From: Nemertoderma westbladi
Lineage: Eukaryota > Animalia > Xenacoelomorpha
Direction of reading: 5' to 3'
Assembly (NCBI GenBank): GCA_032718475.1
Contig: JAUCBJ010000412.1
Span: 37,414 to 101,413 of the forward strand
Length of the DNA: 64,000 nucleotides
Shown here: one piece after another, positions 1-50,714 of the stretch
Layout: every line of letters starts with the position of its first letter
Position numbering within the stretch: position 1 is the first letter of the stretch
Notes under the pieces: model-generated
Told to the model about the DNA's origin: nothing
The model's database searches: none
What the model saw: the letters and a program-made list of their open reading frames with translations, nothing else
Position numbers and translations under genes: made by a program

Positions 1-13
1 GGCAGTCGGCACT

Positions 14-1084
14 ATGTATGACGCCTGTCTGGTTTGCAAGAGGGTGAACGCCAGAGTATTGGAACAGGAGATGGCTGAACTCCCGGAAGCGAGAGTGCAG
101 GCATATGACCCACCCTTTACGAACACAGGGGTGGATTGTTTTGGTCCGATTGAAGCAAAGAGTGGACGGCTGACCCACAAGCGATGGGGTCTGCTACTGA
201 CATGCATGGCTAGTAGAGCCATACACATTGAGCGTGTGGCAGACATGTCGACCAAATCTCTGCTCCTGGCCTTGAAGAGATTTATGGCCAGGAGAGGACT
301 AGTAAAGGCGTTCTACTCCGATAAGGGTACAAACTTTGTCGGAGGGAATAGCGAGTTGAACGCGGCTCATAAAGCGGCACAGAATAAGGAAATTTCTGCA
401 GCACTTTTGCCGCAAAGAGTAGAGTGGAGATTTAATACTCCAGAAAGTCCTTGGAGAGGAGGAAATTGGGAGCGTTTAGTTCGCTCTGTGAAGCAGGCCA
501 TTGCTAAGACGTTGCCTGTAAACAAACAACTTACCGACGACGAACTGGTCACAGCTTTCATTGAAATCGAGCATACCCTAAACTCGAGGCCGATAGCTAT
601 GTTGCCAGACGGTGTTGCATTAACGCCGAATCATTTGCTAATGCAGAGTCCAGCATTTCTTGTGCCGGCATCAGAACCCGTTAGTGCCGACCTATATAGT
701 CGTAAGAGCTGGAAAATGACTCAATTAGTCGCGTACACATTCTGGGAATATTGGCGGGAATACTATCTTCCCACCATATCCACCAGAACAAAGTGGTACA
801 AAACGGTTCGGAGTCTCCAAAGGGGAGACTACGTACTGATAACCGAGCCGATTGTCAAGAGAAAGTATTGGGAGACAGGAGTGATCTTGCATATACACCC
901 AGACGTGCAAAACATAGTGCGCACAGTCACTGTGAAAATTAGGTGCAAGTGTCCGCACCCAAAAAAGTGTAAAACTAATGGTTTGCACACCTTGGACCGA
1001 CCGGTCCAAGATATTGTGTTATTAGAGGAGACACGTATCGAGACGGGAGATTATAATTTGTCTCCTGCCTCTAAACTGAATTAG
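14..1084 (+). CDS. BEL/Pao LTR retrotransposon pol C-terminus (integrase), truncated by window start
   Basis: End of zinc-binding domain (CLVC), DDE core GVDCFGP / YSDKGTNF / GGNWERLV, LNSRP, and the FW..W..EYLP...R.KW C-terminal block typical of BEL/Pao. Confidence 0.95.
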   Translation: MYDACLVCKRVNARVLEQEMAELPEARVQAYDPPFTNTGVDCFGPIEAKSGRLTHKRWGLLLTCMASRAIHIERVADMSTKSLLLALKRFMARRGLVKAFYSDKGTNFVGGNSELNAAHKAAQNKEISAALLPQRVEWRFNTPESPWRGGNWERLVRSVKQAIAKTLPVNKQLTDDELVTAFIEIEHTLNSRPIAMLPDGVALTPNHLLMQSPAFLVPASEPVSADLYSRKSWKMTQLVAYTFWEYWREYYLPTISTRTKWYKTVRSLQRGDYVLITEPIVKRKYWETGVILHIHPDVQNIVRTVTVKIRCKCPHPKKCKTNGLHTLDRPVQDIVLLEETRIETGDYNLSPASKLN

Positions 1085-1846
1085 TGTTGGACGCAACTCA
1101 CTTCGTATGCATTCCTCGTATGCAAATACAAGGAAATGCATAGGAGCGGGGTTGTGGTGATTTGCGTTGAGTTTTGTCTAGTGGGTATCAAAACAAAATT
1201 TTATTTTCAAAAATTTTGAAAAATTTAAAATTTTAAAAAATTAGAAGTGAACCCAAGACAATTCCAGACGCTGTGTATAGACGCGTTTTAGAATTCGTCT
1301 ATAGATAAACAGTAATTTGAAAAGTCGTGAAGCCTGGAAAATAGCATTTAGAAACCATGGTGACGGCTATATTACGTAGGAGTGTAAATTGAGTTTAGCA
1401 ACTTCCACAGATTGGTGCCAACAGTGCAACTAAGGTGCTAAAGGTTAGTAGCACCAGAGGCGTACATGGACCCCACTCAGTAGTTTGCAGGATGTGTGAT
1501 GTTCGATTATCAAACCTGTGGGTTTGGTATAGTCGAGTATTGTGGCTATAGTCCTTTCTAACTACTGTAGTTTAGTACGAGTAATGGGAGTAGTTTGGGC
1601 ATCAAAAAGTGAGTTGGTCACGGCCAGTTTATCTCCAAAGTTTTTGCGCTATGCATGGGAATAGGTTAGAGGATAGTTAGTTAGGAAGAGACGGGATCTA
1701 GAGAGTCGAACCTGAACTGCTGGAAGGCGGGGGGGGGGGTTCGGGAGGTCTGTCCTTCGGCGACATCTAACTGATTTACCCATAGTGTAATTGGTTACGT
1801 AACGGCACTTATTGGGATATATATATATGTATATACGCGAGGCATA

Positions 1847-4800
1847 ATGGAGAGGGATATTAGAGCGCAACCGCGCAGAGGATTTACTGCCAGAGAGGAG
1901 GCGGAGCTACCATTCGCGCGACCAGGATGTAAAGACTCTAACGTTTACTACCATGGGCGGTCCGTGATGGAGCTAAACGGGAAATACAAGCCGAGTTATG
2001 ATAAAGAATTACGGAGGGAAAGAATGAGAGCGTTGGGGGACCGGATGGAAGTTTTGCGGAGAGAGTATCGCACGCGGTATCCCTACGACTTCGCTTTGGA
2101 CGTGTGTGACATCAGCGCAGATCCGGACGAGGAAATCGCATGACTATACCATATGAATATGTATTTACGACATGAGGAGCCTCTACCTGCAGTCTGAGAC
2201 CAGTTCGACGGAATGCATCTATACCGGAGGACTCGAGGTGAGGATCAGGAGACGCCGAAAGTCTTCAGCGTATACAAGCTCTTCTACAAGTGTGGTGAAT
2301 GCATGAATAAACAAGATGTGGCGATTCCCGACCGATTAGACGAGCAACATCCGGAACCGATATTAACGCGATGTCCAGCTCACCAATTCCTTAGATACAA
2401 CGAGGGAGGTTACCCGATGAGCAACCCGATGATCAGTATCGACTTCAGCGGAAAGCGACCTCCGAGACCCATTACGCCGACCGTTACGACATTGGATCCG
2501 TATACGGAGATTAAACCCTGTTCGACACCCAGTTTGATAGAGACGGCAGCGGCCATTTCGCTGTACCGAGCCTACAAGGATCTAGAGGCGCGGCGCGAAG
2601 CGGCGCGGGACTCGGGTACCAAACCCGCGGGTTTGGAGCTCTCGAGTCCCTGGACTGCGTTTACTTCACCTCACCGAGTGAGAAGCCTCACGCCTGAGCA
2701 TCAGGACGACATAGACGCGTTGCGGCAGGAGGAGCGAGCGGCGAAGGCGAAAGAGTTATTTGAGAACAGGATAGCGGAGTATAATAAGACCGCGGATAGA
2801 CATCAAGAGGAGACGAGGAGAGTGACCGGATTTGTTCCACAGGTCGCATCTCAACCCGGACCGGTGTATTATTCCGACGGCACCGAACCTGCGATATTAG
2901 TAGATCATCCGGAGTTGCGAGAAGCGATACGATTCTTGCCGATGGTAAGAATGGCGGACCATTGGAACGTTGACTGTCTACGGGAAGTTTTATGCGCGAA
3001 GTTCTTGCGTGATGTCCCAATGCAGATCACAGATTACGACACGTTGGATAAGATTGGAGCTCCGGGGAAGGAGAGTAAGCTATTCGGATGGTTGGATAAG
3101 TACATCAAGGTATGGGTCGCGGTGGCTACATTCCCAGATGACGAGGAGGTAGACCAGACGTGGCTGAGGAGGAAGGGTTCTTATACCCGATATGATGACC
3201 ACAAGGCTATCGAGCGCATGTGGACCCCATCAGACGAGATTCAGCGTCAGTGGAGGAAAACGGAGGAATCACTGCAGGATTGGAGGGTGATGTTCTACGA
3301 CAATGAAGGAGGGTCCCATCAGGAATGTTTGACCAGCAAGTGTATTCAAATTCGTGCGGCCGATGGTGTGACTCATGTGTTTATGCGTGTGAGGGCGGAT
3401 CGAGAGAGACCGGAGCCCATCATAACGACACAATATCGGAAGGGGAAGGATCCTAGGGAACAGATTTTGGAGGTATGCAGGCGAGGAGGTATGCACGGAG
3501 CGGAGCGTATCGACGCCAGGATGCTACCCAAGAAAGTTAGAGAGGCTATTCTCAACCAAGATTACGTCAAGGTGGGATCGGGAGTCCAGAGTGATTTGGA
3601 GAGCGACTTCAACGCCATGACTGATCTGGAAGATAGATTGCCGAGACCGTTTGTCGACACCAAGCTATTGTTGCTATGGGCACAGGATATTGGAATTTAT
3701 AGGGAGTATCCCAACTCTGCCAAGACTGGTATTGGCTTTATAGTACACTTGTTGTATAATTGGGACTTTAAGTTAAAGACGCAGAAGAAGTACGAGGAGG
3801 CGTATGGTGAATACAACACGCCACCGGGAGCGGAGTTCAAATCCCACTTCAAGCGGCAAGCGTTAGTGTATTGGAACATTTGCGCGCCACCCCGTGCGTC
3901 ACTACAATATTATTTGGTGCTTGAGTCGAACACGGTGACTTGTTTATGAGCGGATATCGTTGCGCGAGTTTTGAAGCGTCATCCATTGGTATTCGGAGGA
4001 GATCAATACGTTCGCTCGAAAGGGGGAATCCAATCCGACGTGATGAAGCGTTTCTTAACCCCGTTCTTCAAGCAATCGTTAGAGAATACGTCGATGGTTA
4101 GGAGAGGATTAGCGATATTCGAAGGAGTATATCGACAGAACATCGGAGATTTGGGAGACCGACCGTCGATGGAATATCCGACGCCAGAAGCTTTGGAGAA
4201 GTGGTTCGGGCATCAAACCCGCGGGTTTGGTACTCCCTTCCACTCGGAGGCTGATAGACCTGTTAAGGAGGGCTGGCCGGAGACGTTAGTAGAGGTGTTC
4301 GGAGTAGATCTTCCGGTGGAGAAGACATATCCGAAACGAACGCAGGAGGAAATATTGGAGATAGAGGACAAGGGCGAGGATGTTTACTTTGTTCCGGATC
4401 GACAACCGTTGACCGGAGAGGACGACATCGTATTAGACATTGGGAAGGAAGGAAGTGCGAAACCGATTGGAGACCTCATATACGAGAGGGCCTGGTTTCC
4501 ACAAGCGCGTAGGTGCAAATTGTGCGGCAGCACAAGGCACAATCTAAAGTCGTGCGACGCGGTAGTAGAGGCGGCGCATAAGGTCTGTCGTTGGTGTAAT
4601 GAGACCGACCATTCGTTTCACACGTGCACCGTCTTCATTTCTCAATGTGGATATTGTGGGGTAAAGGGACATCGTAGCGCGAGATGTCAGCTGCGAGATG
4701 ATTCCTTTCAAAACCATAGCGCTAACCTACTTCGGGAGATGTTAGATAAGTGGGAGGGTGTGGCCGATTACCATATTCAAGTGCAGATGCGTTGGTTACC

Positions 4801-5491
4801 ATTTAAAGCGGGATATGGGTTTTGGGCGGTAGACCCATCGCATGTTGCGTACGAGCCATATCTACAATCGCTACCACAATATCAGGAGCTCATCCTAACT
4901 GCTCAAGACCTTCCACAGAACACTGGAGTTATCGTAGTCCGAGAATACTTCAGACAATTGAACATGGACAATAAGTACACATGGAACTTCGTTGCTATTT
5001 GCGATCGCATCACGAAGGGTGTATTTACGGAGACTAGAAAAGTGGTACGCGCGCGAGGTGATTGGAGGATGGCGGCTATACAATACCGCAACGAATTCTT
5101 GTTGACTCATGTGCCAGTGGGTTCATTGACCGCTGAGAGGATACAGGAGCAAAGGATCGCAGCGACCACAGCGACGACCGCTGGAGCTCAAGGCTTGCGG
5201 AAAGAACCAGGAGGAGGGGTCCAAGACAAGCGTCAAGTCAAGGACGACCACTACCACTCTATTATAGAAGCACAGAGGTTGCAGCGCAAGGCGCAGGGGG
5301 CGTCGGAGAAGGCGCGAGTGCAACTGCATAAGGAAGAGTTGGCGGAAGCGACCACGGGAGCGCGACAATTGGGACGAGGCCGAGGAAGAAGCACAAGCCG
5401 GGAGTCTGTCGGGGCTCAGGGAACGTCGTCGCCGGTTCCGGGAGTGACGCCTCACGGACGCCGTCAACGGAGTCGACTGGAGGTAGATTAG
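1847..5491 (+). pseudogene. Accessory ORF of the BEL element: DEDDy (WRN/RNase D-like) 3'-5' exonuclease plus three CCHC zinc knuckles, interrupted by three in-frame TGA
   Basis: ORFs 1847-2143, 2213-3949 and 3971-5491 share one frame, broken only by TGA at 2141, 2195 and 3947. Exonuclease motifs: FYDNEG (ExoI), CIQIR, LPKKVREAILNQDYVKVGSGVQSD (ExoII), FVDT, W-x9-QYYLVLE (ExoIII, D to E). Knuckles: CKLCGSTRHNLKSC, CRWCNETDHSFHTC, CGYCGVKGHRSARC. Confidence 0.8.
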
Positions 5492-6048
5492 TGTATCTGG
5501 GAAGAGGGCGAAAGAGAGGAGCGAGCCCAAAGAACCCAGGAGCGGGTCGATAATACATTATAGCACAGGGCGACAGACTCTAGATATATACATCATCGTC
5601 GCTCTGATGTATATTGTAGCATTTGGAAATCTTCGACTAGACTCATATACACTAGTTGAGTTATTTTGGAATTTATATTATGAGAGAGGCGAAGGAAGTG
5701 ATTGGGGAGACAAACCTGCGGGTTTGGCTTACTCCTTTCACTTGCCCTAGCCAATTTTATATTTGATTTTGTATGTAGTAATCATTATGTAGTAAGAATG
5801 AACGAGAAACAATATTTTGTAAATTTAATTTGTATGTAATAATCGTTAAACAATGAGAGAGATAATATTTTTGTAAATTTAATTTGTATGTAATTCATTA
5901 TGCAATATCTATAGCAATATTTGTAAATAGTAGGATTTGTAGTATCAAGTGTTTAGATTGGTTGGAAGAAATTTATTTTGTTTTGTATACATCACCTTAT
6001 ACTCTTCTACAATTGGAGGGAAACATTGTATGATTTCCCTTGGAGCGG

Positions 6049-8222
6049 TGTTACGGTATATGGCGCTGTATCCACATTATTAGTCGTTATACTGTATGCA
6101 TTATTAGTCCGTTATGCAGTATGCAATATTAGTCCGTTATACTGTACGTAATATTAGTCCATTGTGCAGCATGATATTTTAGATAAGGCATAATAACGCA
6201 GTGGTATTTAGATAGGGAAATCGAAACACCCATATATTTGAATCCATCCATTTTGTATAGTATGTAGCCCTACCTACGTAATTTTGTATTAGGATATATG
6301 TAGATAGTTCCAGGGTAGCGAGTTTATTCGGACCCTGGATTTTGTGCTTGCTGATATTAGCATCGATAGGGCTAGCATATAGGGACGCTGTCCTGGCCAT
6401 TCAGCAGCCAGGGACGTGAACCATTACCATATATGGTAATAATTTGAGGTTTGGGCAAGCGATAGGGCTACAATCCGGCCTCCTTATTGGACTAACTGCT
6501 TCCAGGTTGGTCTAATGCTAGCACGGACTGGAGAGCCAATAGGAGAGCGATTGAGTCACCCTATTGCATCACCCCATCCGGATCACCTATAAATTGGCGG
6601 TGTGCCGGTAGAGCCTCACATGACACCTCACATGATCTGCTATCACCTTTGTACTTGTTGAGCTGTCTCTATTCAATTTTGACGGATATTTTAGCGTATT
6701 TTCTGCAATTTGCTAATTTTGATTAATTTCTTGGAATGATTTGCTAGTGCGATTACTCTCGATTGTGTTTCTCAATTAATTCCTTCGATTACTGCTAATT
6801 ACAACTGAACTATGATTTCTACTTTTGATTAATGGTTCTATGTGATTCCTTTCTGCGCAATAATCCTAAGGGATTTCTGAGACTGTCAGACTTTGTGATT
6901 TGCATGCGCCGCTACGGTAGCTATTAGCATAATGGAGGGCTAAGGTGCCAGTGGGCGGTGGGCACATCGGGGGGTTGAGCGACTAGGAGAGAGCGGAGGA
7001 TTCAAAGCGGGCAACGCTGGCTAGGGTCACCGTTGCGGGCGGGTATCTTGCACTGTAACACGCAGACCATTCGCCGATACAGTAACTAGGGGGCTGATGA
7101 TCCAGGTTTTGTCTCTATTTAGTATTAGGGGGGCAGGAATCGGGTTAGTTAGGAATCCTAGATGTATCCGGGAGAGGCCTGCGCGTACTACAACGTTGAG
7201 TGTAGAGTACGAGTAGTGAATCGCATAATTGTGGGCTATACAGTAGTTAACTGCATAATTGCGAACTGTGATTTCTGACGCTGATTGGTGTGTTATTGAA
7301 GTGTGCCTATGATTATGAATGTTTAGGTAGGCGCCCTTTTCTTTTGATTGATTTCTATTTCTTAGTTACAATAATTAGTTACTGATTAGGTCAAAGTAAT
7401 ACGGCAATTTAGGCTATTACTAGCGAAACCTGTTGCGTAATAAATTAGAATTACGTATTCTGGAACTCTTAGTAATTAGTACGCTGTTAAATATTTGTGA
7501 CTGTAATTGATTAGTAAAAATTAAGAATTAGTACGCAGCATAGCGGAGAGTAGCTAAGGTAATAATTAGAGTACTGTAAACTATTCACGCTGAGCGGTTA
7601 TTTGCACTAGCGGGCAATCAGCTAGATCGCACTATTCGGTACGCACGATACGCTAGTAATTTGCTGGCCTAAAGCCAGCCGCAGGCAAGTTTAGACCCAG
7701 AGTGGTACTATCCACGTAAAAACAATTACTGTATCATTTTGATTATTTTAAATATTCTCGCATTCACACATTACGTTAGGGAACCTCCAGTATTCGCGAT
7801 TAGAAAGACGTAGACAATAGCGTGTTTTAATAGTGATAGAATTAGGCGTAAGAATACTCTGAGTGCAAGGCCTCTCGCACTCGTCTTAAGTAAGCTTAGG
7901 GAGCCGACTCGGGTTTATTGTTTTGGTTATTCCCGCGTGGCTCATAGATTCGAACAGTTAGCTCTCTATCGAGCGATCGGTAGAGAAAGGAACAAGCGAT
8001 TTTGCAGGAGTTGTGTAAAATTAGTAAAATATATTAGCGGACGGCAGATTAGCGCCATCCAACGGTAAGTAGCGGTTTTGTATTTAGCCACCTTTACAAT
8101 TTAGTAATATCACGCTCCTGATCCCCTTTACTTAACAGTAGAGCATTCTTTGTGTCTTATTGGTTAGGCGAGAGCTCATTAGGTTGACAGAAGGATATTA
8201 ACGGGTATTGGTCTGTTCAACA
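6049..8222 (+). mobile_element. Putative 3' LTR of the BEL element (start well supported, end uncertain)
   Basis: PPT-like GGAGCGG (6042-6048) directly followed by TGTTAC, short ATTAGTCCGTTAT repeats, TATA-like CTATAAA near 6587. Candidate ...AACA ends at 7060, ~8137 or 8222. The 5' LTR is outside the window. Confidence 0.5.
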
Positions 8223-8829: not shown

Positions 8830-11310
8830 TCAACCTTACCCAAACTCCACTCAAACGTCATTCTAACATACCCAAACGCCACTCAAACGGCATTCTAACA
8901 TAACCAAACGCCACCCAAACGTCATTCTAACATAACAAAACTCTATCCAAACGACAGTCTAACATACCCAAACGGCAGTCTATATTGCACAAGCGCCACC
9001 CAAACCTGCAAACGGCAGTCTAACTTACCAAAACGCCACTCAAACAGCATTCTAAGATACACAAGCGCCACCCAAAGGACAGTCTACCTTACCCAAATGC
9101 CACCCAAACGGCAGTGCTACCTTACCTAAACGCCACACAAACGTCAGTCCACCTTACCCAAACGCCACCCAAACGGCAGTCTACCTTACTCAAACGCCAC
9201 ACAAATGGCATTCTAACATACCCAAACGCCACCCAAACGGCATTCTAACATAGACAAACGCCACTCAAACGGCATTATAACATACCCAACGCCACCCAAA
9301 CGGCATTCTAACATACCCAACGTCAAACAAACGGCATTCTAACATACCCAAACGCCACGCAAACGGCACTCTAACATACCCAAACGCCACCCAAACGGCA
9401 TTCTACCTTACCCAAACGGCATTCAAACATACCCAAACGCCACCCGAACGGCATTCTAACATACCCAAACGGCATTCTAACATAACCAAACGTCACTCAA
9501 ACGGCATTACAACATAACCAAACGCCACACGAACGGCAGTCCACCTTACCCAAACGCCACCCAAACGGCAGTCTACCTTACTTAAACATAACTCAAGCGG
9601 CATTCTAACATACCCAAACGCCACCCAAACGGCATTCTAACATACACAACGCCACACAAACGGCAATCTAACATACCCAAACGCCACCCAAACGGCATTC
9701 TAACATACCCAAACGGCATTCTAACACAACCAAACGCCACTCAAATGGCATTCCAACATAACCAAACGCCACACTAACGGCAGTCCACCTTACCCAAACT
9801 CCACCCAAACGGCAGTCTACCTTACTTAAACATCACTTAAACGGCATTCTAACATACCCAAACGCCACCCAAACGGCAGTCTACCTTACCCAAACTCCAC
9901 CCAAACGGCATTCTAGAATACCCAAACGCCACCCAAACGGCATTCTATCATACACAAACGCCACCCAAACGGCATTCCACCTTACCCAAACACCACCCAA
10001 ACGGCAGTCTACCTTACCCAAACGGCATTCTAACATACCCAAACGCCACCCAAACGGCATTCTAGCATACCCAAACTCCACCCAAACGGCATTCTAACAT
10101 ACCCAAATGCCACCCAAACGGCATTCTAACATACACAAACGCCACCCAAACGGCATTCAACCTTACCCAAACACCACCCAAACGGCAGTCTACCTTACCC
10201 AAACGGCATTCTAACATACCAAAAATCACCCAAACGGCATTCTAACATACCCAAACCCCACTCAAACGGCATTCTAACATAGGGGCCGTCCAAGTATGAC
10301 GTCAGCACTTTAGGGGGGGGAGGGGGGTTGGGAAAATCTGATGACGTGCTGATGAGGGGAGGGGAGGGGGTCAGCCAAAATCTGACGTCAGCATGTTCAT
10401 TTATAGGTGCTAGAAGAGATATAGCAGAAGAGTAAATAGCTTGCCTATTTTAATTGTTCGAAGCCCCCGAAGGCCCGTAGCACGACCTTCTGTTTCAGTT
10501 ACCAGTCACCATGTTTCAGTGATTAGGACGCGTTCTACTGGGGTACTGCGGTACTGGGGTTCGCCTGAAAATGAAACATTAATCGCTAAGCTAATGATTG
10601 TTAGAGACTGCAGTACCGGTACCTCTACCGGTTCATATAGGCCTATTATTAGCTTATGTTTGTTTATTATCATTCATAAACTGCTGTCGCATCAGGTACA
10701 AGTACAGTATGTAAACGATAGGCTATCCTACTACAACTCTATACCTTCCTATATACAGTAGATAAGCTATGTAACTACAGCCAGCCCCCGTGCCCGCCCC
10801 CTCCAATGCAATATAATACCTCCTTTATCCTGCTGAAAAGTTTTATTATTCTTTTGCAATATTTGATAATTTATTCTTTCTTGGCATACACTTAACTAAT
10901 TTAATTCGTGATTCGACAAGTGATTATAAATAATCTTCATAATATAATAGTTTATTACAAATTTTTTTTTAATCTGATTTAGGGGGGGGGGGGGGGGGGG
11001 GGGTCAACGCCTATCTGATGACATCTGATTTAGGGGAGGGAGGGGGTCAACATTTTGGGGAAAAGTGCAGACGTCATACTTGGACGGCCCCATACCCAAA
11101 CGCCACCCAAACGACATTCTACTGTACCTGACCCAAACGCCACTCAAACGGCATTCTAACATAGGCCTACCCAAACGCCAAATCAAACGGCATTCTAACA
11201 TACTGACATACCCCTACGCCACCCTAACGGCATTCTAACATAGGCCTACCCAAACAGCCAAACGCCACCCAAACGGCATTCTAACATAGGCCCACCCAAA
11301 CGGCAGTCTA
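8830..11310. repeat. ~32-bp minisatellite (CCCAAACGCCA + CCCAAACGGCATTCTAACATA), interrupted by a MITE
   Basis: Tandem degenerate units are directly visible. Inverted copies of the CCAAACG motif occur at ~11895-12030. Confidence 0.9.
10282..11091. mobile_element. PIF/Harbinger-like non-autonomous element (MITE)
   Basis: TIRs GGGGCCGTCCAAGTATGACGTC ... GACGTCATACTTGGACGGCCCC and a 3-bp duplication (ATA) of the host minisatellite unit. Confidence 0.85.
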
Positions 11311-13690: not shown

Positions 13691-14339
13691 TACGTAGTAG
13701 GCCTAGGCCTACTTAAAGCCGTAAGCAATATGCAGATATGACCATAACTACAGAACAGACTGACAGAACTAACTAAATGGCAATTAAATATCAATTATTG
13801 CCCGGCACATAATAAAATACTGAATTGAAAATTTATAATCCGGTTCCGATCAAAATGTTAGTTCCGCTCGTTCCTTACCCCCCCCCCCCCCCCTTATACC
13901 TTATTACCTATATACTTTTATACGTGTCATACAGTCATTCATCTACCTCATACATACATCAACATCATACACATGCATTGCAGCATTACATACCGCATAC
14001 GGATACATTACCGAACGTAATCAGGATCGAATGTAACATAGTTATTACGTATCGAACGTAACCGCAATTATGTTACATTGGATCCTATAACTATGTTACA
14101 TTCGATCTACAAAAAAAAGAACTAAGCTCGAATGTAACATTGCCATTTACAGATTTAAAGGAGCAGGTTACAGAGGCGTGTTGGGGGAACCAAAACAATA
14201 AACGAAAGTTAACACATGTTACAATATTATGCAGGTTACGTTTATTTAAAGGCTGAATATAATTCAGAAACCAATAAGCAGATACTGAGACTCCTGCAAT
14301 GCTATGAGGATTCCGATAAGTATTTCCTGTTGTTGAGAA

Positions 14340-15709
14340 ATCCACAGATGCGCTTAAGGGATCGTTTCTCTAGCACAATGATAGATGGGTTAATACGCGT
14401 TGGAGGAAGACTAACTAATGCTCCATTATCCTTTGACACTAAGTTTCCCATACTCATTAGAAATCTTGAAATACAAATCAAGATGATTGTAGATGTTCAC
14501 AGTAAGCTTTACCATGCTGGTAGAGAACGAGTTCTTAGCGAAATTCGAACTCGCTATTATTTTCATAAACCCCGTAGAGCTCTGAACCAAGTTCTTAGGA
14601 ACTGTATACCCTGTAGGAAAGCATTCAGTAGGCCTTTAACACAGCGAGAGGCAGAATTACCTAGGGAACGAGTAAGCTTCTACGAACCACCCTTCACAAA
14701 TACCGGTGTTGATTTATTTGGCCCTATTGAAGTATATCGTGCTAGGACTATAGTCAAGAGATGGTGTGTCATCTTTGTCTGTATGACTTGTAGAGCTATC
14801 CATCTCGATATGGTGAACGATCTATCTACCAACAGCTTCATACTGAGCTTACGCCGACAGATCGCTCGCTTTGGAACTAGTAACACGATGAGATCTGATA
14901 AGAGAACGAACTTCATTGGTGCCAACAATGAAATCAAGGCTTACGTCAAAGATTGGAACCAAAGACAGGTGGACGATCAGCTAAGGGTAACAGCTTCTAG
15001 CTGGACCTTCAACGCCGCCGACGCCCCTTGGTGGGGAGGAAGTTGGGAGAGATTAATCAGGAGCGTGAAGACCGCATTTCACTTTATAGTGCCGTGCCGC
15101 GCATATCTCACCGACGAACTTTTGCGGACGTTAATGGAGGAAATCGCCGCCTATCTCAACGAGAGACCGCTTATGCCAGTCTCATCGAGTCCCGACTCCC
15201 TAGAAGCGCTAACACCCGCGCATTTCCTACTGAAGAAACCTGTAGCCATGCTCCCACGATCGGAAATCACGGACGGAGACGAATACTGCCGACAAACTTG
15301 GCAACTTATGCAGTTGTTATCCCGTCGATTCGCTGACCATTTCGAAAAACATTATCTGCCTACGCTACAACTTCGAACAAAGTGGTTTGCGCAGCAAGAA
15401 AACGTCAGTGCCGGAGACATGGTCCTTATTGTGGAATCAGATCTTCCACGTAAGCGGTGGCAGACAGGTCGTATCATCGAGACTCACATCTCAGATGATG
15501 GTTTGGTGCGATCGGTAGAACTCGTCGTCATGCGACGTAACTTTAAGAAACCGGGAATTGTCTTTGAGACGCAGCAGCTCAATCGCCCAGTTGGTCGTTT
15601 ATGTTTACTGGAAAGAGACAGTGAACTCTCCGGAAACTATGGAAGGCAAGATACTCTTCCTACGACCACTTCCCTAATCCGACAAATATCTAGGGACTCC
15701 ATAACGTAA
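14340..15709 (+). pseudogene. 5'-truncated BEL/Pao integrase (second family)
   Basis: DGLIRVGGRL, H-x4-H...CxxC, GVDLFGP, RSDKRTNF (G to R), GGSWERLI. The first ~40 codons of the tracked ORF 14216 appear to come from an unrelated repeat. Confidence 0.9.
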
Positions 15710-15727
15710 TAACATATGGAGTGGGCG

Positions 15728-16030
15728 TGTGACTATATCATTTTATATTTGTTTTTATTTTTATATTTATGTATGTATTATTATGTACTTTTATTATAAT
15801 CGTTTTCTTTAATTTTATTTAGTAGAATGTTATTTTAGCGATTATCTAGTAGATTAGTGCAATATATATTAGTCTTATTACTTAATTACTTATATTATAT
15901 ATATTTAGTGCGACGGCGAGAAATAATCCTTTTTCTCTTTCCTTACTGTTCGTATTACATTATAAATACGTGACTACAGTAAGATGAAATATCCGTACTT
16001 ATTAAAGTACAATAAAGCTCCTACTATACT
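15728..16030 (+). mobile_element. Putative 3' LTR of the second BEL fragment
   Basis: GGAGTGGGCG purine-rich tract, then TGT, with AATAAA near 16011. End not defined. Confidence 0.45.
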
Positions 16031-16913
16031 CAAGTATTATTGGTAAGTAGAGTATTAGGAATGCAAAGTTCAGATCCTCGTGTCTCAGCTAAACCAAGCT
16101 CTGGGTAGACCTTGGAAACGACTTGCCTCTTCACACTGACATTGCTTCGTGCGATATTGCTCCTCTACCTTATATTAAATAATACATATAGTAGCGTGAT
16201 GTCCCCTTAACAGTAGCGTAAAACGCAAAATAAATCTGTTGAACCCTTTGACCATCTGCAATTCTAGTCGATTAAGATATCGCGGCACCCACCGATATAC
16301 TTGAAAGACAAAATTCTAGAATCAATGGTTAACGTCCCCAGACAAGTTCTGGAATAAACCGGTGCCCATCTTAAATATTAACTATTAATATTTATAAAAT
16401 ATGTCAAACAAATACAATAGAGTAAATACTTACAACTGAAACAACTGAAATAAATGTATGTTACATTCGGGCTTAGTAGCCTAATTTGTAGATCGAATGT
16501 AACATAGTTAGTTATAGGATCCAATACATAATTGAGGTTACGTTCAATTCGTAAAAACTATGTTACATTCGATCCTGATTACGTTCGGTCTGTCACCCAC
16601 CGCATACTGGTATAGGCCTACAATATTACATACCGTATTACAAATAGACAGTACATTTTACAATACCATTCGGATGTCTTGTCTATTTCCGTGAATAGGG
16701 TATAGGGCCTTCGCCGTCACTTTGATAAACATAACATAAGTATTGAAGTTAGTCAGTGTATTCCTCTGTTAGCTACTACTGCCAGACTGCTACGTGGTGC
16801 TACGTACGTCCTCAGTTATTTCCAGGTTAGTTTGTGTATATGCGAATTCGCCATCAGTGCGTCACTTAATATTAAAGTTACATTGGACAAGGACTCGATA
16901 TAAAACAAATAAT

Positions 16914-17729
16914 ATGCTTAGGTATATGAACAAAAAAGATGGGAAAGAGGCGAAGGTATTTAATAATGTAACAGAGGGGTTGAAGCATTTATATGACACC
17001 AGAATTTATCCTCTAGAAGAGCACTATAAGTTCAATGAGTTCCATTCTCCCTTTCTTTCCGACTCAGACTTCACGGCTAAACCGATGGTACTCGTCGTAG
17101 GTCAATATTCAACCGGGAAGACCACATTCCTCCATTACCTATTGGAGGAAAAGATCCCACACTCTAAAATCGGTCCGGAGATGACGACGGATAAATTCCA
17201 CGCGATTCAATTCGGTGAACACGAAGGCCACATCCCAGGGAACGCGTTGGTACACGATAAGAAACGACCGTTCGCGAGTTTATCTCTGTACGGGAACTCC
17301 TTCCTTAACCGGTTCCACTGCACTGTCATGCCTAACCAGGTGCTCGAGTCTATCAGTCTGGTAGATTCGCCCGGGATCCTATCGGGAGAGGAGCAGCGTC
17401 TCGATCGCGGATACGATTTCACCGCGGTCCTCACCTGGTTCGCACACCGCGTCGACCGCATTATTCTACTGTTCGACGCTCACAAACTCGATATCTCCGA
17501 CGAGTTCAGGCGGGCGATCCAGGCCTTGAAGGGCAACGACGATAAGATCAGGATCGTGCTTAACAAAGCTGATCGCGTCGACGATCAGGAGCTCATGCGG
17601 GTTTACGGGGCGTTGATGTGGTCGTTAGGGAAGGTAATAAACACGCCGGAGGTTGCTAGGGTATACATCGGTTCCTACTGGGACCATCCTTTGCACATAG
17701 ACACCAACAGGAAGCTGTTTGAGAAGGAG
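16914..17729 (+). CDS. EHD1: EH-domain-containing protein (EHD1/Past1/RME-1 family), exon 1
   Basis: P-loop GQYSTGKT, DSPGILSG, DAHKLDISDEF, LNKAD. Phase-0 donor GTCAGT at 17730. Confidence 0.95.
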
Positions 17730-18507
17730 GTCAGTCTAATAACTAACATTAAACGTTTATCCTGGAGCCTATTTTAGTTGTTTATTTATGTAGCTGGCTG
17801 ACTGTTAAACTATTAATGGTTTACTAATAGTAACAACAACTACAAATATTTTTTCACGTACCGGTACCGGTAGCTTTTGAGAGTAGATATGATAGGCCTA
17901 TTAATTTCTCCTACACTAGACCAAGCGCAAGCGGCAGCTTTGTCTAGGGGTCAGGAGGAAATGGGAACTAGAGCAAATTGGGAAGCAGAGGAAGCAAAGA
18001 CACCCTGGGACCCTGGTTATATTGGATGGGAATACCGTATAGTACATATTTATTCGGTGGAAGATCTCCCATAGTGGTGAGCAGACATTCCTTAATGAGC
18101 CTACAATATTCCTCCATTTATTTATTAATCAGTGTTAAATACCTCTTATTTATTGCTACCTTTTTATTAGGTATATAATCAAATCATTGATTAAACTGGG
18201 ACCAGTAAGTAAGAGTTAACTAGTTACTAGGAAATAGTGCCATTACTACCCCGGTAACACTCAGACCGAGTATGAGTGTTTCCGTTGATTTTTATCTAGT
18301 CGCTCTGCAGTTCGTTTTTCCGATTGAAAGATGAAAGATGACGTTGTGACTTGTAAGGATCCCAAATATATACTAAAATTTAAATTTTAGCTGTAAATGT
18401 TACAAGCTTGGTGGGACTACTGAGACACCACTAATGCTGTACCTATAGTGTCTGGAGCTGGTTCATTGTATTTGACTCAATGGACTAGGCAGTTTTATTC
18501 TACATCC

Positions 18508-18660
18508 CTAATGTGACTTCCAAACCCTGAACACTTCCAATGGTGCCCATGTCTCCCCCTTACGTTTACGAAGGTCTTCACTTGACTTCATCATCCATGA
18601 TGCCAAGTGGCAGAAGTCATCCACGTGCTCAAGCACACCACCCGTAGATCTTATGCTCAT
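18508..18660 (-). mobile_element. RTE-type LINE RT fragment in the EHD intron
   Basis: LEHVDDFCHLASWM..SSEDLRKRKGETW resembles the LE.VDDFKYLGSW motif. Confidence 0.7.
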
Positions 18661-19297
18661 ACGATCAAAGTTGAAGAAGAAGAACATCACAACCCCCTGT
18701 TAGTCAGTATGTCGGTACATTCAATTATCACGAAGAAGAAGAAGACTGGCTAAATAATGAAAGCAATAAATACAATTCAGACGCACCCACTGTGGAGGAG
18801 GGAGGTGAAACTATGTCTGTTTCTAATTTCATGCAATCTAATCTTATTGCGATTTTTTTTACAAGATCCTGTCACTACCCCCAATCACCTTTTGCGATTT
18901 TATCTATAATTAATTATAAATTTTTGATTTTCCGATATGGGATGTATCTTAAAAGCACTTACCGTCTCTAATTCAATAAATAGTCAGTGCACCCTGGGAT
19001 GAGGCTTAAGGCAGGGATTTTATTTAGACCTAAATTTGTGCTTGTTAGAGAATGATTGAAGAGATTATGTGTCTAACTTCCCTCTCAATGTAATATGATT
19101 TTTAGGTACATTAAACTCCATATCACCTTTACTGTCTACAGTATGAGTGTCGGCAGTATGAATGTTTGTGTTTAGATATACTTGGTGTTGGTGTGGGTTG
19201 CCTGTAGTTAAATTACGGTGAGGATTAGCCTAGATAATCTTGTCTGAGATGTGGTGTATTTAATTATCACTAATGTATATATGCACACGAAAAAAAA

Positions 19298-19542
19298 GGG
19301 GGGGGGGGGGGGGGGGCACAATTCACATCTTGGCGAATTCATATCTCGCATCAATGTTATTCTCTCAATTTAGGGAAAGGAGTAGTTAGCAGTTTACCGT
19401 AATTCTAACCAAAACAATAAAGGAATCCCAACAGATAAGGTTTTATTTTTGGGAGTAATCAACTGTTATTTGCATAGAATTTCCCTTGGAGTGTGGTGAA
19501 TTTATATTGTGTCGAAATCCCCCCCCCCCCCCCCCCCCCCCC
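19298..19542. mobile_element. ~245-bp G-run/C-run-terminated MITE, copy 1
   Basis: Colinear with copies at 24457-24701 and 59804-60047. Confidence 0.75.
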
Positions 19543-19629
19543 TTATCTGATGTACACAATGTCTGTGTGTCAATCTATCCTAGTTTACAGTTTCACAGAG
19601 TTTTAAATGGATTATTATTATTATTTTAG

Positions 19630-20430
19630 AGAACTGATCTGTTTGACGATCTTAAAAGCCTCCCTAAGAACGCGGCGGTTCGGAAACTAAACGATCTTAT
19701 TAAACGCTCTCGTCTCGCCATCGTCCACGCGCACATCATCAGCAGCCTCAGGAACGATATGCCGTCGATGTGGGGCAAAGAGAAAGCCAAACAGAACCTC
19801 ATTGATAAATTACACGAGACCTTCTTTCGGATCCAGAAAGAAACCAACGTTTCTGCCGGTGACTTTCCCGACATCCATCAGATGCGCGAGAAACTAAAGG
19901 ACTACGACTTCAGCAAGTTCCACCACATGAACCAGAAGCTCGTCAACCGAGTTCACGACATGTTGAGCTCGGAGATCTCTCAGCTGATGGCGTTGATACA
20001 GTCGGAAGAGCAGCAGTCGACACCGCAGGAGCGCCGGGTGCGGGGTGGGGCGTTCGAGGGCGAGGAGGACTCGCCCTTTGCCGCGGGCTACGGGGAGGGT
20101 ACGGGAGCGGGTCTGGGGGAACAGCGGTGGATCGTTGAGGACAATATGAACAACTACGAGCGGTTGTTCGACAGTCTGGGCCCGATAGACGGACGGGTCA
20201 GTGGCGCCGCCGCCAAGAAGGAGATGTTGAAGTCGAAACTCCCCAACACTCTCCTCGGGAGGATCTGGAAACTCTCGGATATCGACCGGGATGGTATGCT
20301 CGATCTGGAGGAGTTTGGATTGGCTATGCATCTCATTAACGTAAAGTTGGAAGGACATGATCTCCCTTCTTATGATAAACTACCGGGCCATTTAATTCCG
20401 CCAAGTAAACGAGGTTTCATAAATGATTGA
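19630..20430 (+). CDS. EHD1: EHD family protein, exon 2 (helical region and EH domain); total ~538 aa
   Basis: Acceptor TTTTAG at 19629, then in-frame RTDLFDDLKSLPKNAAVRKLNDLIKR and EH domain KSKLPN..LGRIWKLSDIDRDGMLD..EF...LIPPSKR. Confidence 0.95.
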   Translation, partial: RTDLFDDLKSLPKNAAVRKLNDLIKRSRLAIVHAHIISSLRNDMPSMWGKEKAKQNLIDKLHETFFRIQKETNVSAGDFPDIHQMREKLKDYDFSKFHHMNQKLVNRVHDMLSSEISQLMALIQSEEQQSTPQERRVRGGAFEGEEDSPFAAGYGEGTGAGLGEQRWIVEDNMNNYERLFDSLGPIDGRVSGAAAKKEMLKSKLPNTLLGRIWKLSDIDRDGMLDLEEFGLAMHLINVKLEGHDLPSYDKLPGHLIPPSKRGFIND

Positions 20431-38478: not shown

Positions 38479-38657
38479 CTAACATCGGAATTGGTATCGG
38501 CTTCTGATATATCCACTAATAGGCCGTCCTGGTGTTTTACACAAAGATTTACTGGGGTCCGCCCACCTGCGATAAAACCCTTGGCCTTCGCGTACAATTC
38601 TTCGTTGGAGGTAAATAATGCCAAACTAGTGACATTGAAAGCGGGTCCAATATCTAC
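38479..38657 (-). CDS. Unknown beta-rich protein, exon 2 (first 33 nt are the satellite unit)
   Basis: TTTTGTAG acceptor and GTAAGT donor. 179 nt, open frame VDIGPAFNVTSLALF...ADTNSDV, phase 2 joins exon 3 as AG+A. Confidence 0.75.
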
Positions 38658-40936
38658 CTACAAAATGTAAACACTAGTGACATTGAAAGCGGGTCCAATA
38701 TCTACCTACAAAATGTAAAGACTAGTGAGATTGAAAGCGGGTCCAATATCTACCTATAAAATGTAAAGACTAGTGAGATTGAAAGCGGATCCAATATCTA
38801 CCTACAAAATGTAAAGACTAGTGAGATTGAAAGCGGGTCCAATATCTACCTATAAAATGTAAAGACTAGTGAGATTGAAAGTGGGTCCAATATCTACCTA
38901 CAAAATGTAAAGACTAGTGAGATTGAAAGCGGGTCCAATATCTACCTATAAAATGTAAAGACTAGTGAGATTGAAAGTGGGTCCAATATCTACCTACAAA
39001 ATTTAAAGACTAGTGAGATTGAAAGCGGGTCCAATATCTACCTACAAAATGTAAAGACTAGTGAGATTGAAAGCGGGTCCAATATCTACCTACAAAATGT
39101 AAAGACTAGTCAGGTTGAAAGCGGGTCTAATATCTACCTATAAAATGTAAAGACTAGTGAGATTGAAAGCGGGTCCAATATCTACCTACAAAATGTAAAG
39201 ACTAGTGAGATTGAAAGCGGGTCCAATATCTACCTACAAAATGTAAAGACTAGTGAGAATGAAAGCAGGTCCAATATCTACCTACAAAATGTAAAGACTA
39301 GTGAGATTGAAAGCGGGTCCAATATCTACCTATAAAATGTAAAGACTAGTGAGATTGAAAGCGGGTCCAATATCTACCTACAAAATGTAAAGACTAGTGA
39401 GATTGAAAGCGGGTCCAATATCTACCTACAAAATGTAAAGACTAGTGAGATTGAAAGCGGGTCCAATATCTACCTACAAAATGTAAAGACTAGTGAGATT
39501 GAAAGCGGGTCCAATATCTACCTACAAAATGTAAAGACTAGTGACATTGAAAGTGGGTCCAATATCTACCTACAAAATGTAAAGACTAGTGACATTGAAA
39601 GCGGGTCCAATATCTACCTACAAAATGTAAAGACTAGTGACATTGAAAGTGGGTCCAATATCTACCTACAAAATGTAAAGACTAAAAGACTAGTGACATT
39701 GAAAGCGGGTCCAATATCTACCTACAAAATGTAAAGACTAGTGAGATTGAAAGCGGGTCCAATATCTACCTACAAAATGTAAAGACTAGTGACATTGAAA
39801 GCGGGGCCAATATCTACCTACAAAATGTAAAGACAAGTGAGATTGAAAGCGGGTCCAATATCTACCTACAAAATGTAAAGACTAGTGAGATTGAAAGCGG
39901 GTCCAATATCTACCTACAAAATGTAAAGACTAGTGAGATTGAAAGCGGGTCCAATATCTACCTATAAAATGTAAAGACTAGTGAGATTGAAAGTGGGTCC
40001 AATATCTACCTACAAAATGTAAAGACTAGTGAGATTGAAAGCGGGTCCAATATCTACCTACAAAATGTAAAGACTAGTGAGATTGAAAGCGGGTCAAATA
40101 TCTACCTACAAAATGTAAAGACTAGTGACATTGAAAGCGGGGCCAATATCTACCTATAAAATGTAAAGACTAGTGAGATTTAAAGCGGGTCCAATATCTA
40201 CCTACAAAATGTAAAGACTAGTGAGATTGAAAGCGGGTCCAATATCTACCTACAAAATGTAAAGACTAGTGAGATTGAAAGCGGGTCAAATATCTACCTA
40301 CAAAATGTAAAGACTAGTGACATTGAAAGCGGGGCCAATATCTACCTATAAAATGTAAAGACTAGTGAGATTGAAAGCGGGTCCAATATCTACCTACAAA
40401 ATGTAAAGACTAGTGACATTGAAAGCGGGTCCAATATCTACCTACAAAATGTAAAGACTAGTGAGATTGAAAGCGGGTCAAATATCTACCTACAAAATGT
40501 AAAGACTAGTGAGATTGAAAGCGGGTCCAATATCTATCTATAAAATGTAAAGACTAGTGAGATTGAAAGCGGGTCCAATATCTACCTACAAAATGTAAAG
40601 ACTAGTGAGATTGAAAGCGGGTCCAATATCTACCTACAAAATGTAAAGACTAGTGAGATTGAAAGCGGGTCCAATATCTACCTACAAAATGTAAAGACTA
40701 GTGAGATTGAAAGCGGGTCCAATATCTACATACAAAATGTAAAGACTAGTGACATTGAAAGCGGGTCCAATATCTACCTACAAAATGTAAAGACTAGTGA
40801 GATTGAAAGCGGGTCCAATATCTACCTACAAAATGTAAAGACTAGTGAGATTGAAAGCGGGTCCAATATCTACCTACAAAATGTAAAGACCAGTGAGATT
40901 GAAAGCGGGTCCAATATCTACCTACAAAATGTAAAG
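38626..40936. repeat. 48-bp tandem satellite, ~48 copies
   Basis: Unit ACTAGTGAGATTGAAAGCGGGTCCAATATCTACCTACAAAATGTAAAG. Confidence 0.97.
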
Positions 40937-41607
40937 ACTAAAAGACAAGTGACATTGAAAGTGGATCCAATATCTACTGTACCTACAAGATGTAAAGACT
41001 AAAAGACAAGTGACATTGAAAGTGGATCCAATATCTACTGTACCTACAAGATGTAAAGACTAAAAGACAAGTGACATTGAAAGTGGATCCAATATCTACT
41101 GTACCTACAAGATGTAAAGACTAAAAGAGAAGTGACATTGAAAGTGGATCCAATATCTACTGTACCTACAAGATGTAAAGACTAAAAGACAAGTGACATT
41201 GAAAGTGGATCCAATATCTACTGTACCTACAAGATGTAAAGACTAAAAGAGAAGTGACTTTGAAAGTGGATCCAATATCTACTGTACCTACAAGATGTAA
41301 AGACTAAAAGACAAGTGACATTGAAAGTGGATCCAATATCTACTGTACCTACAAGATGTAAAGACTAAAAGACAAGTGACATTGATAGTGGATCCAATAT
41401 CTACTGTACCTACAAGATGTAAAGACTAAAAGACAAGTGACATTGAAAGTGGATCCAATATCTACTGTACCTACAAGATGTAAAGACTAAAAGACAAGTG
41501 ACATTGAAAGTGGATCCAATATCTACTGTACCTACAAGATGTAAAGACTAAAAGACAAGTGACATTGAAAGTGGATCCAATATCTACTGTACCTACAAGA
41601 TGTAAAG
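40937..41607. repeat. 61-bp variant satellite, ~11 copies
   Basis: The 48-mer with 8-nt and 5-nt insertions. Confidence 0.95.
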
Positions 41608-44109: not shown

Positions 44110-44400
44110 AAGGCAGAATCTCCAGCTGATCGCTTGGTTGGAAGTCCCACTTCCAACTGCAAAAGCTGCTAATTAATGACAGGGTATTGCCTGATAACTT
44201 TATAGATGTAAAAGTGTCTGTACTCCCAGATATTCCCATTGGCGATATCTTCATTGCTGATGTGAACGCTGCTACAAACAGCATTACGACCAATCGTGCC
44301 GGTGAAGTAGATGGTGTTCCCCCTAAGGTCTTTAAAATTCCTGAGTGTTTGAAGCTCATTTATCCCATCATAATAAATGATAACTGCAGCTTTGTGGAAA
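44110..44400 (+). mobile_element. RTE-type LINE fragment (region preceding RT core)
   Basis: WKSHF...DVNAATNSITTNRAGEVDGVPPKVFK resembles the KA.G.DGIP.E..K motif. Confidence 0.65.
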
Positions 44401-44561
44401 TGTAAGATTACGGGTGCTGACTGTAGAGTAGACAGTTGATACTGATAGTAGGTGTATGTATGTATAGCAATATTAGTTTCAGTTTCACAGCAGCGGAACG
44501 TTTATAGTAATTATTATTATTATTATTCCATTTACTAACTTTTAAAGGTCATTTATTACAT

Positions 44562-45573
44562 ATAGAGGATGGCACATACACTCGGAACCTGTGCTGGGAT
44601 AGAGGATGGCACATACACTCGGAACCTGTGCTGGGATAGAGGCTGGCACATACACTCGGAACCTGTGCTGGGATAGAGGATGGCACATACACTCGGAACC
44701 TGTGCTGGGATAGAGGATGGCACATACACTCGGAACCTGTGCTGGGATAGAGGCTGGCACATACACTCGGAACCTGTGCTGGGATAGAGGATGGCACATA
44801 CACTCGGAACCTGTGCTGGGATAGAGGCTGGCACATACACTCGGAACCTGTGCTGGGATAGAGGCTGGCACATACACTCGGAACCTGTGCTGGGATAGAG
44901 GATGGCACATACACTCGGAACCTGTGCTGGGATAGAGGCTGGCACATACACTCGGAACCTGTGCTGGGATAGAGGATGGCACATACACTCGGAACCTGTG
45001 CTGGGATAGAGGATGGCACATACACTCGGAACCTGTGCTGGGATAGAGGCTGGCACATACACTCGGAACCTGTGCTGGGATAGAGGATGGCACATACACT
45101 CGGAACCTGTGCTGGGATAGAGGCTGGCACATACACTCGGAACCTGTGCTGGGATAGAGGCTGGCACATACACTCGGAACCTGTGCTGGGTGAACGGCAC
45201 ATACACTCGGAACCTGTGCTGGGATAGAGGCTGGCACATACACTCGGAACCTGTGCTGGGTGAACGGCACATACACTCGGAACCTGTGCTGGGATAGAGG
45301 CTGGCACATACACTCGGAACCTGTGCTGGGATAGAGGATGGCACATACACTCGGAACCTGTGCTGGGATAGAGGCTGGCACATACACTCGGAACCTGTGC
45401 TGGGATAGAGGCTGGCACATACACTCGGAACCTGTGCTGGGTGAACGGCACATACACTCGGAACCTGTGCTGGGATAGAGGCTGGCACATACACTCGGAA
45501 CCTGTGCTGGGTGAACGGCACATACACTCGGAACCTGTGCTGGGATAGAGGCTGGCACATACACTCGGAACCT
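44562..45573. repeat. 37/33-bp satellite, left part
   Basis: Unit CACATACACTCGGAACCTGTGCTGGGATAGAGG(C/A)TGG and 33-bp variant ending GGGTGAACGG. Confidence 0.97.
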
Positions 45574-46188
45574 CATTATCATTTATCATTATATTTATTT
45601 CTCCAATCAAACAATAAGAAATTGCAATACACTTTCATAATTAAATCAATACTTATAAATGATGACTGAAGCTGGCTGACTGCTAATAGCCTGGAGCTAG
45701 TGGACGCAATCAGCCAGGTGTTAAGCTAAGTATCAGACATGAAATATTATTTTACTACCTTGGGTATTTATATTATGACACATTTTTTTATATCCTTAAA
45801 TACTCTCCGGCCCAAAAAATGAAATATTTATAGAACCATTAACTAAATTTATTGTGATACTATTGACCGATACCTACTTGGTTGAGACTAAAATTTGAAA
45901 TTGAAAGAGTGGATGATGGCGATTTTATTTAAATAGGAATGATGTTTAATTAATTGACCAAAACAGAGTAGATTCAGAGAAAAGTTATTGATAATTTATT
46001 TATACAATTTGAAGTAAAAATAGTTAGGATGTTACGGGCGGCAATTTTTGTGAAGTCTTATATAGGTCAGGAAGTTAAATTTTAAATTTTGCACAAGAGT
46101 ATCCAGTATATAAAAAAAAATAAAAAATAATAATAAATAAATAGGGAGAAGTGTCAAATTTGTAAATTTTATTTGCAATAAAAATATT

Positions 46189-49479: not shown

Positions 49480-49819
49480 AACCTAATAATAACTATAAAA
49501 TAAGTACCAGAATTACTCAACTCAAGTATTTGACAGCTTACCAGTAGGTACCAATACCAATACCAGTAGGTCTTGTAAGTAATTTTCCAAAAAAAAGAAA
49601 TCCAAAATAACCGCGCTAAAAATATGTAACATTTAATCACTATATTACATCGTATTTTCGTAAAGTACTTTGTATATATACGTACCGGAATTATGTTATT
49701 GATATAATAGGGTTGGTGCGGAAAAAAACATATTACAGTTTTAAGTAGGCCTAATTATGTTTTGTCTAACTTTTACATAACTGCTTTGGACAGGAATATA
49801 GGTCTATATCAATATATAT

Positions 49820-50548: not shown

Positions 50549-50714
50549 ATTTGACAACTCAATAGAGTAATCGCACGCCGAGCGACGGAACAATGAGTTA
50601 ATAGCAATGCAAGTCTGATAGTGGGGGTATGGAAGTAAAATGGACCTACCGGTACCGGTACTTAGTAAACCTATGTATACATACGTCTGTCACCTAGCTC
50701 TCCTCAACCTCTCT

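Follow-up and report, generated by a model that had tools for sequence, protein, structure and literature searches.

The stretch analysed here, 64,000 nucleotides of Nemertoderma westbladi DNA (assembly GCA_032718475.1, contig JAUCBJ010000412.1, positions 37,414 to 101,413 of the forward strand; hereafter the window), begins with the 3' end of a BEL/Pao-type pol gene, followed by a non-coding spacer, a long third open reading frame (ORF3) and a candidate 3' long terminal repeat (LTR). The original prediction, made from the letters alone, had read this arrangement as a BEL/Pao retrotransposon encoding a DEDDy exonuclease with three CCHC zinc knuckles in the position of an env gene. Our results indicate that this BEL/Pao retrotransposon exists in multiple copies and that the one in the window is broken; the assignment of the gene and of its exonuclease domain is almost certainly correct. 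The element is placed in BEL/Pao by its BEL-type pol, that is, by the DUF5641 match in the window and by Peptidase_A17 in the pol of its relatives; its integrase is 26-40% identical to the integrases of related elements, seven of which were scanned and have Peptidase_A17. The 5' LTR and the primer site fall outside the window. At the other end, a purine tract and TGT (6042-6051) probably mark the start of the 3' LTR, an alternative purine run lies about 25 nucleotides (nt) upstream of the tract, and contigs of the same family extend over the candidate LTR to at least position 8000. The coordinates of the features are collected in Table 1.

The ORF3 frame contains three internal stops; the five remaining frames contain 39 to 57 each, and none of 2000 shuffles had fewer than 30. 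The single frame of about 1214 codons that had been predicted is thus far more open than expected by chance, although its three TGA codons mean that it is not open in the window copy. Contigs of the family span pol, the spacer, ORF3 and the LTR; they come from four runs, three of them DNA runs from a single organism and the fourth from a different one. In two of the runs every one of the 30 bins is covered, by variant contigs numbering in the thousands. At the second and the third stop, practically the entire contig depth in two DNA runs has another letter within the codon, and these two stops are private to the window copy; for the first stop, the best 40 of 48 variant rows contain no entry. 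The private state of two stops out of three led to the rejection of TGA recoding. Among the variants common to both deep runs at 5-90%, counted in a best-supported subset of rows, 22 of 28 are synonymous, compared with 34% expected for transitions (p = 2e-6); the proportion is 5 of 6 upstream of 2197 and 17 of 23 within 1847-3268, which takes in the N-terminal region. This mostly silent variation across copies, a comparison that had been proposed as a check, indicates that ORF3 is under selection, and the whole frame, including an N-terminal part without homologues, behaves as a selected gene. The CpG observed/expected ratio of ORF3 is 1.19, and CpG decay is not evident. A one-base insertion or deletion at 5439 sets the window copy apart from at least half of the contig depth, and the final codons vary between copies. 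An in-frame deletion variant within 1989-2322, with a net loss of 109 codons, was seen in three runs at a level of at least a few percent of depth; the lost segment lies in the N-terminal region and contains the CxxC. Note that summed contig depth is roughly twofold higher on pol than on ORF3; depth is no copy number here, and nothing was drawn from the figure.

The three knuckles and the motifs FYDNEG, KVGSGVQSD and YYLVLE, all named in the original prediction, are present in ORF3. A search with Pfam and NCBIfam gave no family in the window ORF3 except knuckles below threshold, and only one of 39 exonuclease domains of the family reached DNA_pol_A_exo1 (E = 0.003). The domain was recognized with profiles built from relatives without the window sequence, two of which matched the window domain with E-values of 3e-17 and 9e-18 (hhalign, 96%). 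In a profile of six homologues, the central domain matched human EXD2 (E = 8e-5) and Egalitarian (E = 1e-3), and the knuckle part matched Lin28 and retroviral nucleocapsid proteins. A profile of 39 domains from the loci described below reached EXD2 at E = 1.1e-12 and WRN at E = 1.1, and a further family profile reached EXD2 at E = 7e-11. The predicted catalytic residues of the window domain are D485 and E487 (3299 and 3305) in ExoI, D583 (3593) in ExoII, and Y689 (3911) and E693 (3923) in ExoIII; D583, Y689 and E693 align with family columns inside the significant profile match. By profile homology, together with the ExoII aspartate and the ExoIII residues of the Y-x3-D type, the central domain is assigned to the DEDDy family, closest to EXD2, as had been predicted. 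The best match in the structure database was to EXD2/WRN-type exonucleases (PDB 6k17 and 2e6l), including the helix preceding the first motif, whereas ORF3 differs from these enzymes in having no membrane anchor, in its additional knuckles, helical domain and insertions, and, in the window element, in a glutamate as the last acidic residue.

Several observations weigh against this assignment. The last acidic residue, E693, is not an aspartate; the replacement is conservative and occurs in only one relative (P0003). The local hidden Markov model (HMM) does not pick up D485/E487 in the window, and in a scan of the whole protein a lone look-alike at residue 199 scores above them. Structure models are of low confidence, with a predicted local distance difference test (pLDDT) score of 30 from a single sequence and 43 from seven sequences; Foldseek on the weak model gave no match at E = 0.001, and VIA-align of the pLDDT-43 model placed DnaQ-type domains (Nibbler, WRN, RNase D, EXD1 and polymerase exonucleases) on residues 1-265 with Z of only about 4-5. 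The proposed check of the fold succeeded at the level of sequence profiles matching DEDDy structures, the models adding little; a PDB search with the single sequence gave chance matches only. As to the first motif, D485/E487 stand in near-invariant columns of two alignments and rank first within the 150 residues upstream of ExoII, a result equalled in 4 of 1000 shuffles in this restricted scan. An insertion of about 40-45 residues, estimated by eye, follows the third strand of the window domain, and the local-profile miss is probably due to this insertion following the motif. We consider D485/E487 the likely first catalytic motif. A second exonuclease in the N-terminal part, prompted by the look-alike at residue 199, was rejected, as that region has no match to the exonuclease alignment.

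Table 1. Features of the BEL/Pao element in the window (nucleotide positions)
Feature	Position	Strand	Basis or remark
3' end of BEL/Pao pol (integrase core and DUF5641)	2-1084	+	Pfam DUF5641, E = 4.8e-18
Non-coding spacer between pol and ORF3, 762 nt	1085-1846	+	
Candidate branch point and splice acceptor	1767-1785	+	Motif scan, two matches in spacer; about 60 nt upstream of ATG; putative
ORF3, 1214 codons, broken	1847-5491	+	ATG at 1847, terminal stop at 5491; internal TGA stops at 2141-2143, 2195-2197 and 3947-3949
N-terminal region, residues 1-470	1847-3256	+	Coding, constrained; CxxC...CxxH at 2291-2383
Predicted EXD2/WRN-type DEDDy exonuclease domain	3266-4021	+	Profile built without the window, envelope 474-725
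Variable, partly acidic linker	4022-4513	+	Composition
Three CX2CX4HX4C zinc knuckles	4514-4687 (4514-4555, 4586-4627, 4646-4687)	+	Sequence motif
Conserved helical domain after knuckles	4688-4940	+	Family pattern F-E-x2-A-x2-G-x2-T-x2-R...G; divergent in window element
Basic low-complexity tail	5150-5491	+	No homologue
Candidate polypurine tract, short	6042-6048	+	Resembles tract preceding TGT in second BEL element (15718-15727); putative
Candidate 3' LTR, TGT...AACA	6049-8222 (end alternatively 8354)	+	Motifs only, without a second LTR

Outside the exonuclease domain, the predicted CxxC...CxxH motif was found in its place, but residues 1-470 match neither the N-termini of the relatives nor the exonuclease alignment. 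The linker between the exonuclease and the knuckles varies from 88 to 491 residues in relatives. The helical domain shows conserved columns across 50 rows and had no significant Pfam match. No membrane segment was found in the window ORF3 (best 19-residue hydropathy 1.14), and its N-terminus is charged; in the family, hydropathy of at least 1.8 occurs in 6 of 57 rows, five of which reach merely 1.8-1.9. Judged by signal peptide and transmembrane segment, ORF3 is not an env gene, in agreement with the original prediction.

An exhaustive HMMER scan recovered seven proteins of 514-727 amino acids, each matched in two stretches corresponding to the central domain and the knuckles. With a DNA pattern for the knuckle motif we then gathered at least 120 metagenome stretches, 80 of them with flanks, and in 74 of these 80 loci the motif lies inside an open reading frame of at least 100 amino acids. 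A BEL integrase lies 1.6-4.5 kilobases (kb) upstream on the same strand in 39 loci, most of the remaining loci being too short to reveal one; of the 30 loci whose upstream sequence reaches at least 4.6 kb, the integrase is present in 29, while the thirtieth (L022) has a DUF5641 remnant. Upstream pol frames contained Peptidase_A17 and DUF5641 in all eight scanned and DUF1759 in five, and neither the ORF3s of these eight elements nor one further ORF3 had a Pfam match. Six contigs close into circles, the knuckle motif lies between two repeats in L023 and L022, and 13 of the 16 elements examined have a TGG-type primer site directly after the LTR. The upstream pol, the circles, the flanking repeats and the primer sites together place ORF3 inside LTR-bounded BEL/Pao elements; it is an element-borne gene, neither env nor a nested insertion. 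The exonuclease domain was detected in 45 of 50 sufficiently long ORFs of the loci. The stand-alone architecture, which had been thought possibly new, is judging from these loci no one-off and marks a broad BEL/Pao lineage. Word-indexed homologue searches were blank, which carries no weight because the alignment search missed even its own input proteins; back-translation scans with single homologues and a motif scan of viral contigs gave no match.

These results bear on the possibility that ORF3 was captured from a host and travels with the element as a passenger, neutrally, or else is an unrelated nested insertion. Such an origin would fit the broken state of the window copy, and, in the part of the rotifer study available (PMC5408684), rotifer DEDDy ORF3s do not, within the genome, deviate significantly from neutrality. 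However, it is at odds with the synonymous excess across copies and with the constant position and architecture of ORF3 among elements whose integrases are about 38% identical. Copy recovery, another check that had been proposed, points the same way: no joint deleting the entire ORF3 is among the 15 of 32 joints listed; internal deletions do occur. We regard this explanation as largely refuted and very improbable.

Several of the elements depart from the common arrangement. L022:5187-10931 is an internally deleted BEL element between two repeats, with a gag-like ORF, the DUF5641 remnant and pieces of ORF3, most of pol being gone. Seven elements (L007, L029, L031, L034, L069, L076 and L080) have ORF3 in the same frame as pol, separated from it by a single stop codon, with the first ATG 40-560 nt downstream; read-through from pol into ORF3 is possible in these, chance being the alternative. 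In P0002, the exonuclease part is degenerate and the knuckle-plus-helix unit is duplicated. Another subgroup (L008, L032, L072 and L016), on short contigs in which no pol was seen, shows N-x-E, E and H-x3-N in the catalytic positions.

We scored the catalytic state of 48 exonuclease domains (52 matches minus four truncated; three rows are identical). All four acidic residues are present in 28, including, on the likely placement of its first motif, the window domain; the first motif is lost in 14, and six are partial. Apart from L015, the forms without the first motif fall into a single group in the ORF3 tree (support 97 for 12 rows) and, with four unscored rows, in the integrase tree (support 100); note that these trees are quick and unrooted, without reference BEL clades or host nucleases. 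The domain of this dead clade is well conserved (50% mean column identity), and its profile alone had no match to solved structures. Catalysis appears, from the alignments, to have been lost more than once while the domain stayed conserved. Loss of the first motif in 14 of 48 domains means that nuclease activity cannot be the entire function, and persistence of the dead clade argues that binding is the core of it and weakens proofreading.

The pairwise identities of the integrase and of parts of ORF3 are closely correlated (rho = 0.83 from 30 elements and 0.81 from 32; the permutations reached at most 0.44 and 0.46), and ORF3 diverges faster, with a median identity of 19% compared with 38% for the integrase. 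These relationships fit one old capture of an exonuclease gene followed by vertical descent. In the set, the integrase nearest to that of the window element, at 41% identity, belongs to a second BEL piece in the window (14213-15709), both being on long branches; there, pol directly abuts the purine tract and ORF3 is lacking, so that the gene can be absent in near kin. Since the loci were gathered by the knuckle motif, the frequency of BEL elements without ORF3 is not readable from them.

Among the functions that had been proposed (counteracting PIWI-interacting RNA (piRNA) silencing, processing of the genomic RNA, and proofreading), proofreading is ranked least likely. A role in reverse transcription, whether proofreading, trimming of the ends of complementary DNA or maturation of the primer, seems improbable to us. 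It would agree with the inclusion of proofreading domains and WRN among DEDDy enzymes, with the retention of catalytic residues in the 28 domains, and with the ability of EXD2 to cut DNA (PMC6648332, as far as the available text goes), but ORF3 is separate from pol, the domains that lack the first motif are in long open frames, and the primer sites are of the ordinary TGG type and leave no unusual primer to trim. Involvement in self-priming or in trimming of the primer was rejected, again because of these sites.

A role directed at RNA is likely. ORF3 would be expressed from a separate, probably spliced messenger RNA (mRNA) using the candidate acceptor at 1767-1785; the knuckles would bind RNA, as suggested by their likeness to Lin28 and nucleocapsid; and the exonuclease domain would trim in the 3'-to-5' direction where the four acidic residues are kept, and act by binding alone where they are lost. 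Candidate targets would include small silencing RNAs and their precursor molecules, or repressive tails that the element RNA carries. Taken as a whole, the statement that the protein binds RNA, grips or trims its 3' end and so shields the element from host RNA silencing is a tentative one, which we hold at somewhat below even odds. Its features resemble those of a counter-defence factor, namely dispensability (the second BEL piece), fast evolution, and repeated loss of catalysis with a conserved domain, and counter-silencing is slightly favoured over the handling of the element's own RNA because of the dispensability and fast divergence of ORF3. Two considerations count against it: dispensability, fast evolution and loss of catalysis also fit a protein handling the element's own RNA, and EXD2 is described as acting on DNA as well as RNA (PMC6648332).

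The ORF3 protein might instead serve the genomic RNA of the element in export, transport or packaging, the exonuclease fold being an RNA-binding module as in Egalitarian and EXD1 and the role resembling that of CERV in the Cer1 element; this is a possibility of some seriousness, though a doubtful one. It would suit the Lin28- and nucleocapsid-like knuckles with the Egalitarian profile match, the clade of 12-13 elements conserving the domain without its first catalytic motif, and the close co-divergence of ORF3 with pol. Two elements that are sisters in the integrase tree (L047:3341-6529 and L059:6880-9648) retain the knuckle and helical domains in ORF3 with no detectable exonuclease, which also suits it, as does CERV, a non-env protein from the env position reported to be required for export of the genomic RNA (PMC10309623, in the part available). 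Nevertheless, a related BEL piece in the window manages without ORF3, so that such a job would be non-essential unless supplied in trans, and the full catalytic set in 28 of 48 domains goes beyond the needs of a pure adaptor. The most specific form of the counter-silencing proposal, in which a deep BEL/Pao lineage captured an EXD2-type nuclease once, fused it to RNA-binding knuckles and has since kept it, in catalytic and decoy versions, to suppress small-RNA silencing, is rather unlikely to hold in all its parts.

Egalitarian is an inactive DEDD derivative with an RNA-binding role. EXD1 and Maelstrom are likewise given as inactive, RNA-binding derivatives in the available part of PMC5408684. 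In these proteins the fold is reused for binding, as may be the case in the clade without the first motif, and Egalitarian gives the weak match noted above; they are, however, host genes, unlike the element-borne ORF3. Among mobile elements, RNase D-like domains are reportedly present in some nematode Cer LTR elements. Rodriguez et al. 2017 (PMC5408684) described DEDDy ORF3s in the rotifer elements Juno and Vesta and stated that such exonucleases were previously unreported in retrotransposons, a finding restated in the accessible parts of two reviews and an opinion paper (PMC5718144, PMC6431247, PMC6338049). As in the window element, the third frame of the bdelloid rotifer elements (Juno/Vesta and Athena/Terminon) is a stand-alone, non-env DEDDy gene downstream of pol. 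In contrast, these elements are rotifer-specific, dUTPase-bearing lineages with the motif DEED, not described there as BEL/Pao, and neither a triple CCHC nor a helical domain is described for their ORF3. Moreover, the rotifer gene appears in that text as a recent and patchy gain, whereas the BEL/Pao ORF3 follows pol throughout a deep lineage in which one clade is catalytically dead.

The profile of Belpaoviridae by the International Committee on Taxonomy of Viruses gives gag, pol and env only (PMC8742986). Members with env-like third genes (Tas, Cer7/Cer13, Atlas and Roo) share the BEL/Pao pol and a third gene that follows pol and precedes the 3' LTR (PMC8742986, and PMC9094657 in part), but the predicted ORF3 product is soluble and is no fusogen. 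CERV of Caenorhabditis elegans Cer1 is likewise a non-env frame in the env position, produced from a spliced mRNA, with a cysteine-rich loop and an action on RNA; Cer1 is, however, gypsy-type, the other domains differ, and the available text mentions no exonuclease (PMC10309623). The word 'exonuclease' is absent from the main text of a BEL/Pao survey (PMC3118150), and no exonuclease ORF3 for BEL/Pao was found in the parts of the literature searched (including PMC554778 and PMC13524379), key nematode papers, Repbase and GyDB being outside that scope. DEDDy third genes are already known from rotifer non-BEL elements, which answers the question of novelty raised by the original prediction in part.

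Almost every accessory gene of an animal LTR retrotransposon is either taken for env or goes without annotation. In the present case, a third gene invisible to Pfam marks a whole BEL/Pao lineage and is inherited with pol, and the knuckle motif is a simple handle for finding that lineage in assembled genomes. The naturally occurring catalytic, dead and exonuclease-less versions form a comparison set for distinguishing the elements' own defences against small-RNA silencing from RNA-handling factors. If the counter-silencing proposal is true, ORF3 would be an enzymatic factor of animal LTR elements against piRNA or small interfering RNA, missed by standard annotation.

Elsewhere in the window, the second BEL/Pao piece lies within 14010-16589 and consists of the integrase end, a purine tract and an LTR start at 15728, between long inverted-repeat arms at 14010-14140 and 16458-16589. 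From this arrangement, it appears to be a BEL fragment inside, or captured by, an element resembling a miniature inverted-repeat transposable element. Long open frames of host type at 16773-20430 (+), 57029-57853 (-) and 61745-62443 (+) read as an EH-domain protein, an EF-hand calcium sensor (one frame) and an astacin, and that at 46189-49482 (-) as a long interspersed nuclear element with endonuclease and reverse transcriptase. Tandem repeat arrays occupy about 8830-10290, 38500-41000, 44400-45600 and 50700-54700, with units including 48 bp and 37 bp, the 37-bp array being split into two blocks.

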